Positions 1-6,690 are shown, numbered from the stretch's first letter. The stretch is DNA of 20,546 nucleotides from an uncultured Bacilli bacterium (GCA_947626095.1 CANQQV010000021.1:1-20546); one strand, 5' to 3'. Program-made: numbers and translations. Notes: generated from the letters alone by a model not told the origin.

Positions 1-110
1 TTAGCACCAACTACATTTTTACATTCTTCTGGAATTTCAGCTGCACTAACAGTAACTACTGATAGTAATATTGCACATAGTGCAAATACAAATAATTTTA
101 AATTTTTCAT
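1..110 (-). CDS. 5' end of a secreted surface protein (putative expression locus of the cassette system), truncated by the window edge: MKNLKLFVFALCAILLSVVTVSAAEIPEECKNVVGA...
   Basis: ATG at 110-108 preceded by SD AAGAAAGGGAGAGG. Classical Sec signal peptide (basic MKNLK, hydrophobic core, VSA/A cleavage site). Positions 1-77 are identical to 3029-3105. Absent from the ORF track because it is truncated. Confidence 0.9.
   Translation of the reverse strand, partial: MKNLKLFVFALCAILLSVVTVSAAEIPEECKNVVGA
39..77 (-). repeat. 5' cassette-boundary repeat, copy in the expression locus (39-bp core encoding CAILLSVVTVSAA)
   Basis: agctgcactaacagtaactactgatagtaatattgcaca is identical at 39-77, 1849-1887, 3067-3105 and 4319-4357. 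Confidence 0.97.
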
Positions 111-128
111 ATTTATCCTCTCCCTTTC

Positions 129-152
129 TTAAAATTGTTTGCTTTTAAACAA
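129..152 (-). other. Putative 7-codon leader mini-ORF (TTG-FKSKQF-TAA) with its own SD; its stop overlaps the SD of the main gene
   Basis: Minus strand reads AAGAAAGGAG-ATTAAT-TTG TTT AAA AGC AAA CAA TTT TAA-GAAAGGGAGAGG-ATAAAT-ATG. Confidence 0.4.
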
Positions 153-175
153 ATTAATCTCCTTTCTTACTATTA

Positions 176-204
176 AGTATACTCATCTGACTTTTATTTG
201 TCAA
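176..204 (-). promoter_or_regulatory. Sigma-A/70 promoter of the expression locus
   Basis: TTGACA (204-199), 17-bp spacer, TATACT (181-176) on the minus strand, about 65 bp upstream of the ATG. Confidence 0.85.
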
Positions 205-452
205 CATTTATATTCGTTAAAAATTCAATTTTTTTACATTTACACAAAAATATAAAAAAACTATTATTCCCATAATTAGGAGTATAATTTGCTTTTATAA
301 CAATATTATAACCAAAAATAGGAAAATATAAACTTTATTTTAATTATATTTATTCGACAAAATAATAAATATAAAAAAGATTATATACTAATTATGATCT
401 AAAACTACCACACCCTCTTTTCCTAAATAATATATTATATATTAAAAAGGAT

Positions 453-546
453 GAAATATCTAATATATTTATATAATATGATAAAACTCAAATATTATGT
501 CTTCACAAAAAGGAACAACCTCTCAAATAAATATATTAGATATTTC
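453..546. repeat. Perfect 20-bp inverted repeat around a 54-bp core
   Basis: gaaatatctaatatatttat (453-472) is the exact reverse complement of ataaatatattagatatttc (527-546). Confidence 0.85.
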
Positions 547-630
547 TTTTTTATTTTATGTACCGTACATTTGTATGCATATAAACATATATATTATAAT
601 ATTGTACATCATACATATTAATATATACTT

Positions 631-1887
631 CTATACAAGACCAGCATCATATGTGTTTGGAGCTTGTTCTTCTGGTTTAGCAGCTGGTTTCTTATCATCT
701 TCTGCTTTTGTTGAAACTACTACTTTGTAGTCGCCTTCTTCTTTAACAGTATAACCTTCTGCTACTAATTGATTAGATACATCATAGTTTATACCTGCAA
801 TAGTAACTGTAGCAATAATATTATTTAAATATTTACCACCCGTTAAAATTCCTTGATAAGCTTTAGCAACTATTACCTTATCATCAACTTTAGTTGCAGC
901 ATTAATAAACATAGCGGCACGGTTAGTTGCTTTACTATTAAATTCACCACCACTAATTGCGTATGTAGCATTTGGATTAGTTAAAGATAAAGCATAACCA
1001 CCTGTTGTAGATTCAAGTGTACCACCTGTTATTGTTAATGTTGCTTCAGCAGTACCACTAACTTCAACAGCATCTTTACTAGAAGATACAATTTTTCCAC
1101 CATTAATTGTTAGAGAACCTTCATATAAATGGAATGCATCACCAGTACTAACAGTAAATGTACTATTATCAAAAGTTACTACAGATTTTCCTCTAATAGC
1201 GTTTCCAGAAACAGCAGCTACTTTACTATCTTTAACCGAAATGTTAGCTGCTGTTGTAGTTGCAGAACTAGCACTACTTGGTGTTGCAAATAAAGCACCA
1301 ACATCATATGCTCCACCATTAATAATAGTAGTAGTATTATGAGAAGCTACATTAGCCATTGTTGCTTTAGCAGTTACTGTTAAACCATTTAATGTAAGAC
1401 TTCCATTATTTACAAATAATGCTGCAGTACCAGTTGCAGTAAATGTTCCACCAGTTACCGCTGTTGTTCCTGAGTTATTTACTAAAGTACCACCAGTTGT
1501 AGAAGTAACATTATTTAATGCTAAATTTCCACCTTTGTTTACAATGATTGTACGACCAGCAGTCAATTTAGCACCAGTAATAGTTAAACTACCTTTATCT
1601 GCTACTGTAATAGTAATTGTCGAAGCAAAGTTTACGTCGTTATCGTTAGCTAAAATAGTAACATTTTTAGAAATTGTATATGAGCTGGCTTGAACATTTA
1701 AGTTTTTACCTTCACCTAAAATTTCAACTGTTCCACCATTTTTTACTGCTTCTACAAAAGCTTCTTCTGCAGTATCAGCTTTTTGACCATTATATAAAGC
1801 TTCACAAACACTTTGACCAGCAACTGGATCATCAGTTGGTAGGTAACAAGCTGCACTAACAGTAACTACTGATAGTAATATTGCACA
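631..1887 (-). pseudogene. Silent cassette A (418 codons): variable beta-helix-like surface-protein segment with no start codon, partial signal peptide and truncated anchor
   Basis: Open frame from CAILLSVVTVSAACYLP... to ...APNTYDAGLV-stop. It forms the second half of the 826-aa track ORF. Rich in T/G/N/V with I-x-GG-x-F/Y repeats. Confidence 0.8.
632..710 (-). repeat. 3' cassette-boundary repeat, copy A (KAEDDKKPAAKPEEQAPNTYDAGLV)
   Basis: Matches 1916-1994 with 3 synonymous mismatches. 631-729 matches 3128-3226 with 3 synonymous mismatches. Confidence 0.95.
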
Positions 1888-1888
1888 T
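1849..1888 (-). repeat. 5' cassette-boundary repeat, copy A
   Basis: 40 bp identical to 39-78. Confidence 0.97.
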
Positions 1889-1915
1889 CCATATCTACTT
1901 AATGCTAATCCCATA

Positions 1916-1994
1916 TATACAAGACCTGCATCATATGTGTTTGGAGCTTGTTCTTCTGGTTTAGCAGCAGGCTTCTTATCATCTTCTGCTTTTG
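1916..1994 (-). repeat. 3' cassette-boundary repeat, copy B
   Basis: Near-identical to 632-710 and 3129-3207, encoding the same peptide. Confidence 0.95.
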
Positions 1995-3066
1995 ATGGAT
2001 TAACTGTTACTACTCCATTTTCAGTTGTAGTTGTTGCATTTCCAGTTAAGATTGCAGCAGCTGCAGCAGCATAAGTCTTACGACCATTTTCTTCTACATC
2101 TCCTACAATAGATCCAGTAAATTCACCTTTTTTAATCATTCCGTTATGATTAGTTAGGAATTTTTCATTACGAATATGTAATGCTGGCATTTGTTTTCCA
2201 TCTTTATCTTTACCAGAAGTAACTTTACCACCTTCAAAGCTATAAGTTCCATTTGATCCATCGAACCAAATAGCTTCTTCAACTGAACTTGATGTAGATA
2301 TTTCTCCACCTTTAACAGCTAAAACGTTTGTGTATTTAGCATCTGGTTCTTTTACCCATATAGCTGTTCTAGTTCCTGTAGCTTTAATAGTACCACCATT
2401 AATATTTAATGTACCATTTTTAAGTTCAAACACTCTTTTTGATGATGTATAAGAACCACCATTTACATTAACTATTGTAGTACCAGCATCTAGTGATACT
2501 AGTGCATCTGTTTTTAAATCATCAGTTGTTACTTTAGCATTTAAGTTAATAGTTAAATTTTTGTTTTTACCTGGATCACAATCAACTAACTCATTAGAAA
2601 CTGTCCAATCTCCATTAATATTAACTACTGTAGCTTTTGTAGCATCTTCAACTTTAACAACAGCACCTTCATTATGAGGAGCTCCAGAATTACTTACAAC
2701 TGTTACATCGTCAGCAAATGTTAATGTAGAAGCACTTTTTTCAGAATTAACTTTTAAACTAGAAGTATAACCAGTTTTAATTGTACCATTTTTGATAGTA
2801 ACATTGGCACCTTTAACTGTCCAAGAACCACCAGCAAATGTATGAGTTCCTTCGTTTAAGTTAAGTGTAACATTTTTATCGATTTCTACAACTCCACCAG
2901 TTGAAGCCCATGTATCAGTATCTTTTAAGAATACAATTTCAGCTGTTTCGTCTTCTTTAATATCAGTTAAAGCACTTCCTAAAGATGTAAAACATTGATA
3001 TTGTCTATCTGAATACTTAACAAAATATTTAGCACCAACTACATTTTTACATTCTTCTGGAATTTC

Positions 3067-3105
3067 AGCTGCACTAACAGTAACTACTGATAGTAATATT
3101 GCACA
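3067..3105 (-). repeat. 5' cassette-boundary repeat, copy B
   Basis: Identical to 39-77. Identity extends to the window edge (3029-3105 = 1-77). Confidence 0.97.
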
Positions 3106-3127
3106 AACCATATATTAATATATACCT

Positions 3128-4366
3128 CTATACAAGACCTGCATCATATGTGTTTGGAGCTTGTTCTTCTGGCTTAGCAGCTGGTTTCTTATCGTCTTCT
3201 GCTTTTGTTGAAACTACTACTTTGTAAGTATCTTTTCCAACAACTTCATCTTTTACAGTATAACCTTCAGCAACTAATTCATCAGATATATTGATTGTTG
3301 CACCATTTACAGCTTCACGATCTGCTGTAATATTTAATAAATATTTACCACCAGTTAAGATACCTTTTAATGCTTCAACAACATGTGTTTTACCATCTTT
3401 ATCAGTTTCTAACATTGCTGGAGTTAATCCGATAGCAGCTTTAACATCAGTACCACCATTTAAAGTGCCATTAGTTATTGCATATGTTGCTTTTGGATTT
3501 CCAAGACTCAATGCAAATGATTTTTTTGCAGTTATTGTTCCACCATTTATAGTTAAACTTGCATCTTCACTAGTTCCAGTTGTTGTAATTGCATATGCAT
3601 TTTTAGCAACAAATTCACCATTTTTGATAGTAGCTTCGCCATCACTTAAATATAGTACACTATCATTTGCAGTTACTTTTGTTACATTATTAACTACTAA
3701 TTGAGTACCATGTTCAATAACAAATGCATTACCTGATGTTGTATAAGTTCCACCATCAACAGTAACTTTAGATGGAGTTTCATCATCTGGAGCTGCAGAT
3801 TGACCTGAAGTAACTACAGCAAGAGCATTAGTAACAGTAGCATTTAAGTTAACATTTGCTCCATGAGCAGTTAAATTTACAAGTTTTCTATTTCCAACAT
3901 TAACTTCACCAGTAATTCCAACTTCACCAGCACCAGCAACTGTTATAAATGCTGAGCCTGAATTACCAGCTGTAGTTTTAGTTGAATGAAGTAATAATTT
4001 TCCACCTGCATTAACAACAAATGCACCACCTGTTGTGTTAACATTTAATTCAGTACCTTCAATAGTAAGTGTTCCACCATTAGCAACTGTAAAGCTACCA
4101 TTAGAACCTAAAACTACTTTATGATCACCTGATTTAATTGTTACATTTTTATCAATTGTTTCAGCAGCAGAAATGTTTAAATTAGCGTATAAAACCATTG
4201 TTCCGCCTTTTTTAGCTTCAGTCCATGCTTGACCAATTGCAGCAAATCTGTCACCATTTACAGTAGCTACACATTCACCAGGTTGAGCATTCTTTCCATC
4301 AGCTGGTAGGTTGCAAGTAGCTGCACTAACAGTAACTACTGATAGTAATATTGCACATAGTGCAAA
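3128..4366 (-). pseudogene. Silent cassette C (412 codons); the track ORF 3128..4198 starts at an internal Met
   Basis: The frame is open 56 codons upstream of 4198 (FALCAILLSVVTVSAATCNLPADGKNAQPGECVATVNG...). It is directly preceded by an in-frame TAA (4369-4367) and has no start codon or SD. Ends APNTYDAGLV-stop. Confidence 0.85.
3129..3207 (-). repeat. 3' cassette-boundary repeat, copy C
   Basis: Near-identical to 632-710 and 1916-1994. Confidence 0.95.
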
Positions 4367-4367
4367 T
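4319..4367 (-). repeat. 5' cassette-boundary repeat, copy C (longest boundary match, 49 bp)
   Basis: Identical to 39-87. Confidence 0.97.
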
Positions 4368-4375
4368 TAAGAATT

Positions 4376-4398
4376 AAAAAAAGAAGTATTAAACTTCT
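4376..4398 (-). terminator. Probable intrinsic terminator between the Rpn gene and the cassette array
   Basis: Minus strand AGAAGT-TTAAT-ACTTCT followed by a T run, overlapping the stop codon. The stem is short. Confidence 0.6.
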
Positions 4399-5266
4399 AT
4401 AATATTGGCATACTAAGTCGTTTTGATAATTCTTCATTTGACATACCTGAATTAATAAGCTTTAATAAATTAGCTCTTTCTTCTTGACGGCCTTCTTTAA
4501 TACCGGCTTGTCTTCCGGTTATAATGCCTTCTTTAATACCATCTTCTTTGGCTTCTTTTAAGTCGGCTTCTAATACATCTTTTAAATACTTCTCTTCTTC
4601 GTATTCTCTTTGCATAGCTTTATATTGGTTTACGATTTTCTCTATGTCTTTCATAACACTCTCCCTTTCTTTATTTCCTTTAGCATATATCGCCATCTCT
4701 TTAAAACTAGTTGCATCAAACATTACATAATCTAATTGTTTTTCCATGTCTTGATTATAGCATAAGTTAGACAATATTGGTATATAAATATTAATTATCT
4801 TAATACTATTTAAATCTAAATTATTATCTTTATCTTTTAATGTATAGATAGATGTTCCTATCTCTTTTCTATCTTTAGAATAAAAGTTATTTAAGTTTAC
4901 TTGAATAACTTTTATTTTATCTATATAACTAGTTTTATTATCTTTAGCATAGTATTCTCCGGCTATCTTATAGAGATATGATTCATTACGATTACTTAGT
5001 CCTTTATTATACTTAGGATTTAATTCAATATTAATCTTAATCTTTTTATCAGGTGATTCTAATAAGATATCGACTATATTACCTTTACTATCTTTTCTTT
5101 TAATAGGTAGTTCATTAGGGATTAAGATAAAGTTACTAATATCAAAGTTAACGATATTACTAATAAGACGATTAAAATAGTTTCTTGTTTCTTTACTACC
5201 TATTAACCATAAAGATTTAAATAATTTATCATAAGTTAAAGGAACAAATGGGTTTTCTATTTCCAT
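4397..5266 (-). CDS. Rpn-family recombination-promoting nuclease / PD-(D/E)XK nuclease family putative transposase (289 aa)
   Basis: N-terminal D-x-x-F-K motif (YDKLFK), VDILL...INIELN nuclease motif, IQVNLNNF, and a C-terminal GIKEG...GIKEGRQEER plus GMSNEELSK tail typical of the family. Start reassigned to ATG 5266, which follows GAAAGGAGG. Confidence 0.85.
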   Translation of the reverse strand: MEIENPFVPLTYDKLFKSLWLIGSKETRNYFNRLISNIVNFDISNFILIPNELPIKRKDSKGNIVDILLESPDKKIKINIELNPKYNKGLSNRNESYLYKIAGEYYAKDNKTSYIDKIKVIQVNLNNFYSKDRKEIGTSIYTLKDKDNNLDLNSIKIINIYIPILSNLCYNQDMEKQLDYVMFDATSFKEMAIYAKGNKERESVMKDIEKIVNQYKAMQREYEEEKYLKDVLEADLKEAKEDGIKEGIITGRQAGIKEGRQEERANLLKLINSGMSNEELSKRLSMPIL

Positions 5267-5332
5267 AAGGTATATACCTCCTTTCACTATAATTATTCGC
5301 GATTAAAGGTCTATTTCCTTTTTTTTTAAGAG

Positions 5333-5372
5333 AAAAAAAATAAAGATCTAGCTTAAAACTAGAACTTTATTT
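5333..5372 (-). terminator. Intrinsic terminator ending the rel-dtd-hypothetical operon
   Basis: 14-bp stem with one mismatch (aaataaagatctag / ctagaactttattt), followed by a T run on the minus strand. Confidence 0.75.
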
Positions 5373-6690
5373 AATTATTCCATGTCTTTATATTAACTGA
5401 TTCGTTTTCACAATCATCAGATCTATCAATAACATTTCTTTGTTTATAAACACATAAAGTTATTATATTATCAGTCTCTCTACTTATCTTAAACGCTGGA
5501 TTAGTTATTGTCGAATGATACATTTGTGAGAATTTTAATTGTAATTGATATCTTTCAGTTTTACCATAATCTATAAAATGTAAAATACTATCATTACTTG
5601 TTAAATAAGCAACATAAGATCCTCTTTCAATTATTTGATTAACTCTTTCAATATTTAAGAATTCTCTTCCATCTTCCATTCTATAAATTTTATAATCTGT
5701 AAATTCTTCACTACCAACTACTCGATCTTTACCTGTCTTAATATAATAAGTTAAATTGTTATTACGCCATACATCATATATTGGATCTTTACTATCAATA
5801 GATACTTTCTTATTCTTATATAAATCATAAACATACCATACATCATCTTTACATAAAATATAGTACTTCGTATCTTCATCATAATTTACAGATTTATATT
5901 CAAATGGTAATACTTCTTTTATATCGCCATCTTCTTCAATATGTATAACGCCCCATTTAGCATTATCCATACTCTTAACGATAAAGTTATTATTCTCCCC
6001 ATTTGATTTTTCTAAATCAGCATTATATGTACTATCTTTAACATCAGCATATTTAGCTAATATCTTACGATCATCTAATAAGAACTGATATAAATAAACT
6101 GTTCTTGAATAACCAGCATCACCATATTTTTTATCTTGTTTTTCTGAATCATCAACAAAAGCAAATTTATCATATATATTACCCATTACATGTTGTTCTT
6201 CTAAAGCAGTTAAAGGATCTTTATTTATAATATTATAATCATCATAACCACCAAAGGCCTTATTACAATCACTAGCTGTATTTAAACATTTATAAGCTCC
6301 CACAAATTCGTATTTACTATCATAATAATATAATAAGCCACGATGTTTATCAGCCATTGAATAATTATCATCTGGTATTTCATAATCTTTTGGTACCACA
6401 GGCAAATCAGGTCTTGCCTCTGGTTCTTCTCTTGCTTTCCAAAAAGGTACTAATTCTTCACCTTTTTTTGCATTTCTACTATATTGACGATATATATATC
6501 CAAATGATATATATTCATCAACCGTTCCATCATCATAATCTATTGTTGTATGTATAGCCAATATTAAAGGTTGACTATGAGTATATCTAACATAATTAAT
6601 AATAAATAATATGCCCCATAAAATAGCTAATATTAATAATAGTATTTCTATTTTTTTCTTTTTCGATAATTTAACTGGTTCCTGATACAT
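5371..6690 (-). CDS. Hypothetical membrane-anchored protein with a WG-repeat-like beta-rich extracellular region
   Basis: 439-aa ORF with SD GAGGTG, a basic N-terminus plus one TM helix, and KWGVI...VLPFEYKSV resembling a WG beta repeat. Confidence 0.7.
   Translation of the reverse strand: MYQEPVKLSKKKKIEILLLILAILWGILFIINYVRYTHSQPLILAIHTTIDYDDGTVDEYISFGYIYRQYSRNAKKGEELVPFWKAREEPEARPDLPVVPKDYEIPDDNYSMADKHRGLLYYYDSKYEFVGAYKCLNTASDCNKAFGGYDDYNIINKDPLTALEEQHVMGNIYDKFAFVDDSEKQDKKYGDAGYSRTVYLYQFLLDDRKILAKYADVKDSTYNADLEKSNGENNNFIVKSMDNAKWGVIHIEEDGDIKEVLPFEYKSVNYDEDTKYYILCKDDVWYVYDLYKNKKVSIDSKDPIYDVWRNNNLTYYIKTGKDRVVGSEEFTDYKIYRMEDGREFLNIERVNQIIERGSYVAYLTSNDSILHFIDYGKTERYQLQLKFSQMYHSTITNPAFKISRETDNIITLCVYKQRNVIDRSDDCENESVNIKTWNN

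Follow-up and report, generated by a model that had tools for sequence, protein, structure and literature searches.

A candidate single-expression-site, silent-cassette system for an anchored beta-helix surface protein in an uncultured gut Bacilli bacterium

The expression site and its neighbouring cassettes

This report concerns a candidate silent-cassette system for a surface protein, located at one end of a contig from an uncultured Bacilli bacterium (GCA_947626095.1, CANQQV010000021.1). The window, meaning the whole stretch of DNA analysed, is the plus strand of bases 1-20546 (20,546 nucleotides, nt) of contig C21 in a 1.62-Mb assembly of 34 contigs. This metagenome-assembled genome (MAG), hereafter G000, is 91% complete with 7.9% contamination and has a G+C content of ~28%. 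Window base 1 is the end of C21. An ATG at 110 on the minus strand opens a gene encoding MKNLKLFVFALCAILLSVVTVSAAEIPEECKNVVGA, the reading frame of which leaves the contig at base 1, and upstream of it lie three cassettes in the same orientation with shared ends, as a reading made from the sequence alone (the sequence-only reading) had described. The gene and the cassettes, all on the minus strand, probably belong to a system in which a single expression site is served by a silent archive, and an anchored beta-helix surface protein is varied by recombination at homology arms. The features are listed below from the contig end inwards, with two neighbouring genes last.

1-38, minus strand: initial 38 nt of the body at the expression site (AEIPEECKNVVGA), at the contig end
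39-87, minus strand: 5' homology arm at the expression site
78-110, minus strand: start codon with the unique leader MKNLKLFVFAL (signal-peptide n-region, beginning of the h-region)
113-167, minus strand: conserved 5' untranslated region (5' UTR) block, including the ribosome-binding site
176-204, minus strand: expression-site promoter, TTGACA-17-TATACT
205-630, minus strand: AT-rich spacer from cassette 3 to the promoter
1887-631, minus strand: silent cassette 3
3111-1897, minus strand: silent cassette 2 (body 3105-1897)
3106-3127, minus strand: junction of cassettes 1 and 2, 22 nt
4369-3128, minus strand: silent cassette 1
4370-4399, minus strand: terminator-like hairpin and T-run of the upstream gene, abutting cassette 1
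4397-5287, minus strand: gene for a 296-residue Rpn-like (PDDEXK_2) nuclease with a C-terminal helix of four-residue repeats and an end resembling a helix-turn-helix (HTH)
5371-6690, minus strand: gene for a 439-residue protein, a marker of syntenic position

The promoter matches at 11 of 12 positions and is the best of 26 sigma-70-like sites in 1-5400, a total that is not above that of a shuffle control (29.0 +/- 5.8). The ribosome-binding site ahead of the ATG at 110 is of the GGAG type and lies within the 5' UTR block, ~53 nt of which are identical between G000 and a second species of the genus (G005) while the flanks have diverged. This block may be a regulatory leader; no Rfam family was matched in 1-5400, the block included. 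It also holds a GGAG followed by a TTG and a 7-codon frame, a possible upstream open reading frame (ORF), and a short hairpin, TTTGTTT/AAACAA. The leader runs into the 5' arm, the 35-nt core of which (43-77) encodes CAILLSVVTVSA, and by inspection the arm ends at the likely signal-peptidase site VSA/A.

Cassette 1 starts right after a TAA as FALCAILLSVVTVSAA; its opening reads FALCAILL..., its first in-frame ATG, GTG or TTG is at 4198, and its frame ends with ...DAGLV and a stop. Cassette 2 (403 codons) has an ATG at 3111, two codons 5' of the core, which gives MVCAILL without a charged n-region; it reaches ...YMGLALS and is fused in frame with cassette 3 into an 826-residue ORF. Cassette 3 (418 codons) ends with ...PNTYDAGLV and a stop, and its protein is 71% identical to that of a copy on another contig, C24_1120. 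The sequence-only reading had the cassettes begin part-way through the signal peptide and stop before the anchor is complete, a description amended here by the ATG of cassette 2, its fusion with cassette 3 and its end at ...YMGLALS.

The shared ends are conspicuous at the DNA level. On the 5' side, 39-87 is 100% identical to 4319-4367 (49 nt) and 1-77 to 3029-3105 (77 nt), and 39-78 equals 1849-1888 (40 nt). In the 3' repeat family, 597-729 is 92% identical to 3094-3226 and 71% to 1881-2013. The spacer contains a decayed copy of the 5' core (TGTACAATATTAT against TGTGCAATATTAC), and after the stop of cassette 3 the segment 597-630 resembles the junction of cassettes 1 and 2 (3094-3127). By this resemblance, the junction may descend from an arrangement like that of the expression site, with the promoter region lost.

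The silent archive and the protein it encodes

A search of the genome with the 35-nt 5' core, allowing at most 4 mismatches, recovered 16 copies on 8 contigs (C2, C6, C8, C10, C17, C19, C21 and C24), and the 3' core is present in 14 copies. Promoter, ribosome-binding site and ATG are found together at one of the 16, that at window position 110, and the other 15 are silent; this and the other single-site counts rest on MAGs that are 91% (G000) and 96% (G005) complete. The view that the gene at 110 alone has a promoter, a ribosome-binding site and a full signal peptide thus holds genome-wide, the leader being present at that copy only. The three cassettes first noticed are indeed those of the window, but the archive numbers 15 copies. 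The core is exact in 14 of the 16 copies, and the remaining two deviate in its first 3 bases only. Seven silent copies that stand first in their array begin right after a TAA with an extra 9 nt, TTTGCACTA, matching the expression site. Six of these show the same succession of terminator-like hairpin, T-run, AATNCTTAA and TTTGCACTA, and the seventh (C6:36491) has the boundary TAATTTGCACTA with neither hairpin nor T-run. Three copies in tandem (on C6, C19 and C17) follow the preceding cassette at a fixed 24-nt spacer, and two silent copies begin 9 nt after the stop codon of an upstream gene.

Could the cassettes be ordinary genes, expressed where they lie from unusual starts, by read-through from the Rpn-like gene or, for cassettes 2 and 3, from the ATG at 3111? 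Cassette 2 does carry an ATG, and the Rpn-like gene is in frame with the next cassette in three of five cases, with one or two stops between. The first possible start (ATG, GTG or TTG), however, lies at least 29 codons into the frame in 13 of the 15 silent copies, cassettes 2 and 3 being the exceptions. The signal-peptide remnant lacks a charged n-region, with no ribosome-binding site seen 5' of it, and the hairpin and T-run precede all of the first-in-array copies apart from C6:36491. The frame relative to the upstream gene is inconsistent from locus to locus, which rules out recoding or read-through from that gene, and self-expression as a whole is very improbable.

The interiors of the silent copies bear the marks of coding sequence. 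The window's cassettes had been described as open for over 400 codons each; across the archive, none of the 15 silent copies has an in-frame stop in its 385-482 codons. Their other two frames contain 33-50 and 57-81 stops, and for 400 codons without a stop the probability, given this base composition, is ~1e-15. The ratio of non-synonymous to synonymous substitution (dN/dS) of the five closest pairs is 0.27, 0.40, 0.51, 0.53 and 0.52, at dS 0.40-0.64, and the copies are therefore considered to evolve as coding sequence under purifying selection. Interiors are 28-46% identical to cassette 1 in protein and fall into two subtypes. They are also mosaic, with the closest relative shifting along the length: C2_1301 is like C6_37817 in its second half only, and C24_1120 is like cassette 3 apart from one stretch 97% identical to cassette 1.

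The ends behave differently from the interiors. The final 90 nt of the coding region (PNTYDAG to RKLRN) have no variable column in the nine complete copies, and the 51 nt preceding this 3' arm are 88-100% identical. The arms are thus invariant even at synonymous sites, against an interior dS of at least 0.4. Taken together, these comparisons suggest that the silent copies are kept as coding sequence and exchange segments, with their ends homogenised or selected at the DNA level. Nine complete silent copies end ...SAIGASVVSVRKLRNN, which supplies the rest of the transmembrane helix and a basic tail. A full tail of this form had been predicted from the window.

The incomplete ends bear on a further alternative, that there is no programmed switching, that the start-less copies are remnants of duplication whose ends are kept alike by occasional ectopic recombination, and that only the copy at 110 matters. 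Decay is frequent in gene families of AT-rich small genomes, and damaged ends are present: the frames of cassettes 1 and 3 terminate after GLV, and the tails of C6_37817, C19_5694 and C24_1120 are altered. In addition, no switching is seen in contigs assembled at k=31 and no RNA run is listed. Set against this are the stop-free frames of all 15 copies, the dN/dS of the five closest pairs, the 5' truncation at one and the same base in independent loci, the conservation of the arms at synonymous sites and the retention of the design, with a different repeat, in a second species (below). The remnant explanation is accordingly improbable. In the three copies with altered tails the normal stop or tail is gone at C6:39128, C19:4482 and C24:2368, where the sequence continues as RKYKRVLIIF..., RKLRNLIKNKGNK... 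and RKLRNNIKKLVYF..., respectively. Such ends would be harmless if the 3' crossover lay upstream of them.

What do the cassettes encode? No Pfam family was found for cassettes 1-3, and no NCBIfam family for cassettes 1 and 3; the sole Pfam signal is a sub-threshold match to Cthe_2159 (2.7e-4). An AlphaFold model of cassette 1, built from a 15-row alignment, is all-beta with short strands throughout (pLDDT 90.4, pTM 0.86; the program's own confidence measures). Its best Foldseek matches, all of them weak, are nearly all beta-helix proteins: a capybara-gut beta-helix domain, Awp adhesins, pertactin, tapirins, tailspikes and lyases. The product is best read as a beta-helix surface protein, which would be anchored in the wall or membrane. 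The 3' arm encodes a Lys/Pro/Glu-rich stalk, then PNTYDAG, a hydrophobic helix of ~18 residues and RKLRNN. The tail reads ...APNTYDAG, and relatives have APxT[YLF]D[AG][GS] at the same place. Its earlier description as sortase-like stands in so far as the tail has the three-part layout of a sortase signal and five genes with a sortase domain occur in the genome, but no LPXTG motif is present in the tail. The NCBIfam anchor models gave no match at E<=1 to cassettes 1 and 3, the two searched and both truncated in the anchor. From layout, the protein is a plausible sortase substrate. Since the arms coincide with the signal peptide and the anchor, the whole exposed mature domain is exchangeable.

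A separate observation concerns other surface-protein loci. Only seven runs of G or C of at least 8 bases occur in the genome, and four of them lie between a TTGACA box and a -10-like box (C2:2897-2905, C2:10751-10758, C20:27036-27044 and C26:135-145, all outside the window). One run, a G9, lies 5' of a 514-residue paralogous surface protein (MKKIKLF..., with an RKLRNN anchor) between two silent cassettes. By position, these promoter runs look like slipped-strand phase variation.

Proposed exchange between the archive and the expression site

The assembled stub of the expression gene appears to link it to the archive. Window bases 1-77 are 100% identical to 3029-3105 of cassette 2, an identity that reaches 38 nt past the shared repeat, and every other copy in the genome matches the stub at no more than 82%. 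Cassette 2 is retained in the array behind its own, different upstream junction. One body behind two different upstream sequences would be the mark expected of duplicative transfer. Beyond this pair, the 5' arm is common to the expression site and all donors, and the 3' arm to all complete donors.

How might an archive of this kind be put to use? In the proposed mechanism, one locus would give the promoter, the 5' UTR, the start codon and the first 11 codons of the signal peptide. The ~15 archived copies, dispersed on the chromosome singly or in short tandem, would each hold a complete and different mature domain, bounded by a 5' arm of 35-49 nt (the rest of the signal peptide) and a 3' arm of 90-140 nt (stalk, PNTYDAG, transmembrane helix and RKLRNN). 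Homologous recombination at the two arms would copy an archived cassette into the site, by duplicative gene conversion or a double crossover, such that the whole exposed domain is replaced and the donor stays in place. A population would then show changing surface variants to host immunoglobulin A (IgA) and/or phages. Long conserved arms on both sides, a donor that keeps its place in the array and mosaicism among the cassettes are all in line with homologous, duplicative replacement. Confidence is high that the expression site and cassettes form a programmed system, and moderate that gene conversion is its mechanism. The claim that cassettes are whole-domain donors with homology arms is supported by the purifying selection, the invariant arms, the identity of the stub with cassette 2 and the same architecture in G005. 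A recA gene is present in the genome (C24:8057-8842); its distance of ~5.5 kb from a cassette array (C24:1-2562) is probably coincidence.

The same system could instead be switched by a site-specific recombinase acting on the 35-nt core, in an integron-like excision and insertion or by inversion as in Mycoplasma pulmonis vsa or shufflons, or by deletion between the core and a downstream tandem array. The exactness of the core in 14 of 16 copies, its sharp and constant left boundary and the fixed 24-nt spacer of the tandem cassettes are in keeping with this, as are the four tyrosine and three serine recombinase genes of the genome. Contig C17 starts in the last part of a 3' arm, which is followed by the 24-nt spacer and then a cassette, and the contig could lie downstream of the expression gene, in which case switching could proceed by deletion between direct 5' arms; arrays on the other contigs may be oriented either way with respect to the expression site. 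On C21, however, all four sites are direct copies and the promoter lies between array and expression site, and for these reasons inversion is excluded there and the promoter would be lost in a single crossover, as the sequence-only reading had argued. Neither the 20 kb upstream of the expression site nor any of the cassette loci contains a recombinase gene, a long invariant 3' arm would be needless for a single-site mechanism, and the sequence of cassette 2 is seen at the expression site as well as in the array. Switching by recombinase or deletion is therefore thought unlikely, and replacement by homologous recombination at both arms is preferred.

The design is not confined to G000. Among 31 genomes of relatives the family was found in G000 and strongly in G005, another species of the same genus (MAG 96% complete), and weakly in G010 and G003, where it consists of ordinary genes that each have a start. 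The 5' repeat of G005 is particular to that species and encodes PLGLLTMSLVTVSAA; it is present in eight copies at <=3 mismatches, plus a ninth, weaker copy. Seven of the eight are start-less, two or three of them directly after terminator hairpins. The eighth, which carries the leader MKNLKLFVFAL, reads MKNLKLFVFALCLLTMSLVTVFADD... after a ribosome-binding site, 52 nt from a contig end, and its promoter, TTGACT-17-TATAAT, aligns with that of the window. Contig C9 of G005 is collinear with the window through the expression site, the 439-residue gene (which directly precedes the expression site there), dtd, relA and a flippase-like gene. An extra block of the window, 630-5290 (spacer, cassettes 3, 2 and 1, and the 296-residue gene), lies between the 439-residue gene and the promoter; in G005 a cassette and a 296-residue homolog are located elsewhere, after the flippase-like gene. 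As the expression site is syntenic in the two species, a mobile promoter was ruled out. It appears from this comparison that the expression site is old and fixed, that archive modules move and that each species has homogenised its own repeat, a combination that argues for ongoing recombination between site and archive.

A wider profile search of 5.8 billion protein clusters (E <=1e-10) matched 33 proteins, nine of them belonging to G000 itself and predicted from internal Met codons. Of 19 others read, P0029, P0030 and P0031, from other assemblies, have the same first 23 residues (MKNLKLFVFALCAVLLSVVTVNA) and nearly the same stalk and anchor, with interiors that are 26%, 26% and 56% identical; a search with the leader only returned these three alone. 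In six of the 19 the first residue is the Met that lies within the G005-type repeat, and another two start a few residues further upstream; such proteins are start-less copies as seen by a gene caller. P0033 and P0034, also from other assemblies, have another leader (MKKTLMSIVFGVLAMVLMIGGAKAAG), another tail and differing interiors, and P0035, P0037 and P0046 are apparently truncated copies of this set, some of them beginning inside that leader. The set hints at the same design of expression site and cassettes in a further lineage. Other genera of the family carry the homolog as one gene that has a start, seen in 2 of 200 sampled genomes (and as P0043).

A run search placed the stretch in five DNA rows from two studies, covering rabbit gut and gut metagenomes, with no RNA run among those listed. 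Four runs placed on 1-4500 are represented by Logan contigs of 73-561 nt that end inside the repeats, and in none of these k=31 contigs is the leader joined to any cassette. At place 73, runs X1 and X2 show a second leader variant encoding CAVLLSVVTVNA, the leader of P0029-P0031. At places 73 and 112-117 (runs X1, X2, X3 and X5), a near-identical promoter and leader run into a variant repeat, and the A-run just 5' of the ATG differs in length among contigs of these four runs. It appears that a sister strain or species, with a separate expression site, is also present in these gut samples. A 36-nt portion of the 5' UTR block occurs in one record of the genome contig collection; neither it nor a degenerate leader pattern was found in the metagenome contig collection.

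Several points weigh against the proposed system of expression site and archive. The expression gene is assembled for 36 codons only, and its 3' arm and 3' flank are outside the assembly. The link to cassette 2 depends on one contig end of 77 nt, and the MAG is 7.9% contaminated; a 77-nt overlap would also fit a graph junction of an assembler run at k=77; contig names are of the SPAdes type in a related record sharing the 5' UTR block. The G005 MAG has no silent copy identical to its expressed stub, and the duplication signature is thus not replicated there. A 5' arm of 35-49 nt is short for RecA-type recombination. No switching event has been seen, in run data consisting of k=31 contigs that are unable to bridge a 39-49 nt repeat. 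P0029-P0031 may come from different loci or different species. The fold assignment, finally, draws on Foldseek matches with E >=0.02 and TM <=0.3.

Known systems, adjacent Rpn-like genes and wider meaning

The closest known system, by analogy of layout, would be vmp of Borrelia hermsii. In relapsing-fever Borrelia, Vmp variation is described as one active promoter and ~60 silent promoter-less genes, with whole-gene replacement by non-reciprocal conversion, an upstream homology sequence (UHS) of 61-62 bp, 26 bp of it coding, and a downstream homology sequence (DHS) of 214 bp (PMC6011951). Likenesses are the single expression site, the promoter-less archive, a short 5' element reaching the signal-peptide region and a longer 3' element. 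Here, however, the 5' arm is intragenic, starting from codon 9-12, and the donors lack the ribosome-binding site and ATG as well as a promoter; the 3' arm is also intragenic (stalk and anchor), whereas the DHS of Vmp is extragenic. The donors lie on the chromosome among housekeeping genes and not on linear plasmids. The product is a C-terminally anchored beta-helix protein and not a lipoprotein, and the organism is a monoderm-type gut commensal.

Other systems share parts of this design. Mycoplasma synoviae vlhA and Neisseria pilE/pilS reportedly combine one expressed gene with many open, 5'-truncated donors and unidirectional recombination. Those systems mostly move segments of close donors, whereas here the donors are 28-46% identical to cassette 1 and replacement is apparently of the whole domain. 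Borrelia burgdorferi vlsE/vls also has a single expression site and silent cassettes (PMC11499132). The vls cassettes are ~90% identical to the expressed cassette region, contiguous and used segmentally; those described here are diverse, dispersed and complete. M. pulmonis vsa has silent genes without a 5' end, which have in common with the expression site a ~34-bp site in the signal-peptide region, and it needs inverted sites and the adjacent HvsR recombinase, whereas the copies here are direct, with no recombinase nearby and a long 3' arm. Cassette-replacement antigenic variation is known from a handful of pathogens, and to our knowledge no case is described in a monoderm-type gut commensal or with a C-terminally anchored beta-helix protein. 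A search of full-text literature, a scope that leaves aside subscription journals and supplements, found no description of a comparable system.

The 296-residue gene next to cassette 1 belongs to a family with seven full or nearly full copies in G000, that of the window included, plus a 21-residue fragment at a contig end. Five of the seven have a cassette immediately downstream, on their own strand. Identity among four of the copies is 88-94%, compared with only ~40-46% among the cassettes that follow them. Assignment of the family draws on several weak signals. One paralog scores 22.3 bits (E 6.3e-5) against PF12784, below the 27.4 cut-off, and one of 18 family members passes Pfam (P0019, 3.6e-8). 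The nearest ESM-Atlas clusters (score 0.96) are PDDEXK_2/HTH_Rpn_C. With a model of pLDDT 67.9, Foldseek gave weak matches to McrC (E 0.026) and EcoO109I (E 0.16), and a sequence search of the PDB with the 296-residue protein gave no match. The family alignment shows conserved acidic residues, an E-x-N motif and, in columns 270-320 before the HTH-like end, from ~1 to ~9 four-residue units of the form G-x-K/E-E/G.

Rpn genes are toxin-antitoxin phage-defence genes characterised by variable four-residue repeats, a patchy multi-copy distribution and small C-terminal homologs downstream (PMC10400941). The genes described here are alike in their putative PD-(D/E)XK N-domain, long repeat helix, HTH-like end, patchy multi-copy spread and small downstream homologs; they differ in scoring below the Pfam cut-off and in their repeated position upstream of silent cassettes. 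In G005, short C-terminal fragments lie directly 3' of full-length Rpn-like copies (C9:8891-9130 and C48:2676-2951). We know of no counterpart for Rpn-like genes placed upstream of silent cassettes. The family is found in 12 of 27 genomes of the genus, and in four other species (L069-L072) the Rpn-like gene lies between housekeeping genes with no cassette adjoining; adjacency as evidence of function is weakened by this spread. On sequence grounds, the 296-residue gene appears Rpn-like and has a possible role in switching, where it may be a bystander or a stimulator of recombination. A bolder version is doubtful: that whole-domain cassette replacement arose in a gut commensal of the Bacilli independently of spirochetes, Neisseria and mycoplasmas, that the upstream Rpn nucleases would make breaks or promote RecA-independent copying of donors, and that selection would come from receptor-using phages at least as much as from antibody.

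The finding explains why such MAGs break at these loci, and it presents a compact natural design in which the arms match the signal peptide and the anchor. It raises the question of whether IgA or phage drives the variation, and makes a role of Rpn-like nucleases in programmed recombination conceivable. If that reading of the nucleases is true, it would tie a family regarded as 'defence' to programmed receptor variation. If the system itself is as proposed, coat switching would be a strategy of ordinary gut residents, beyond the blood or mucosal pathogens.

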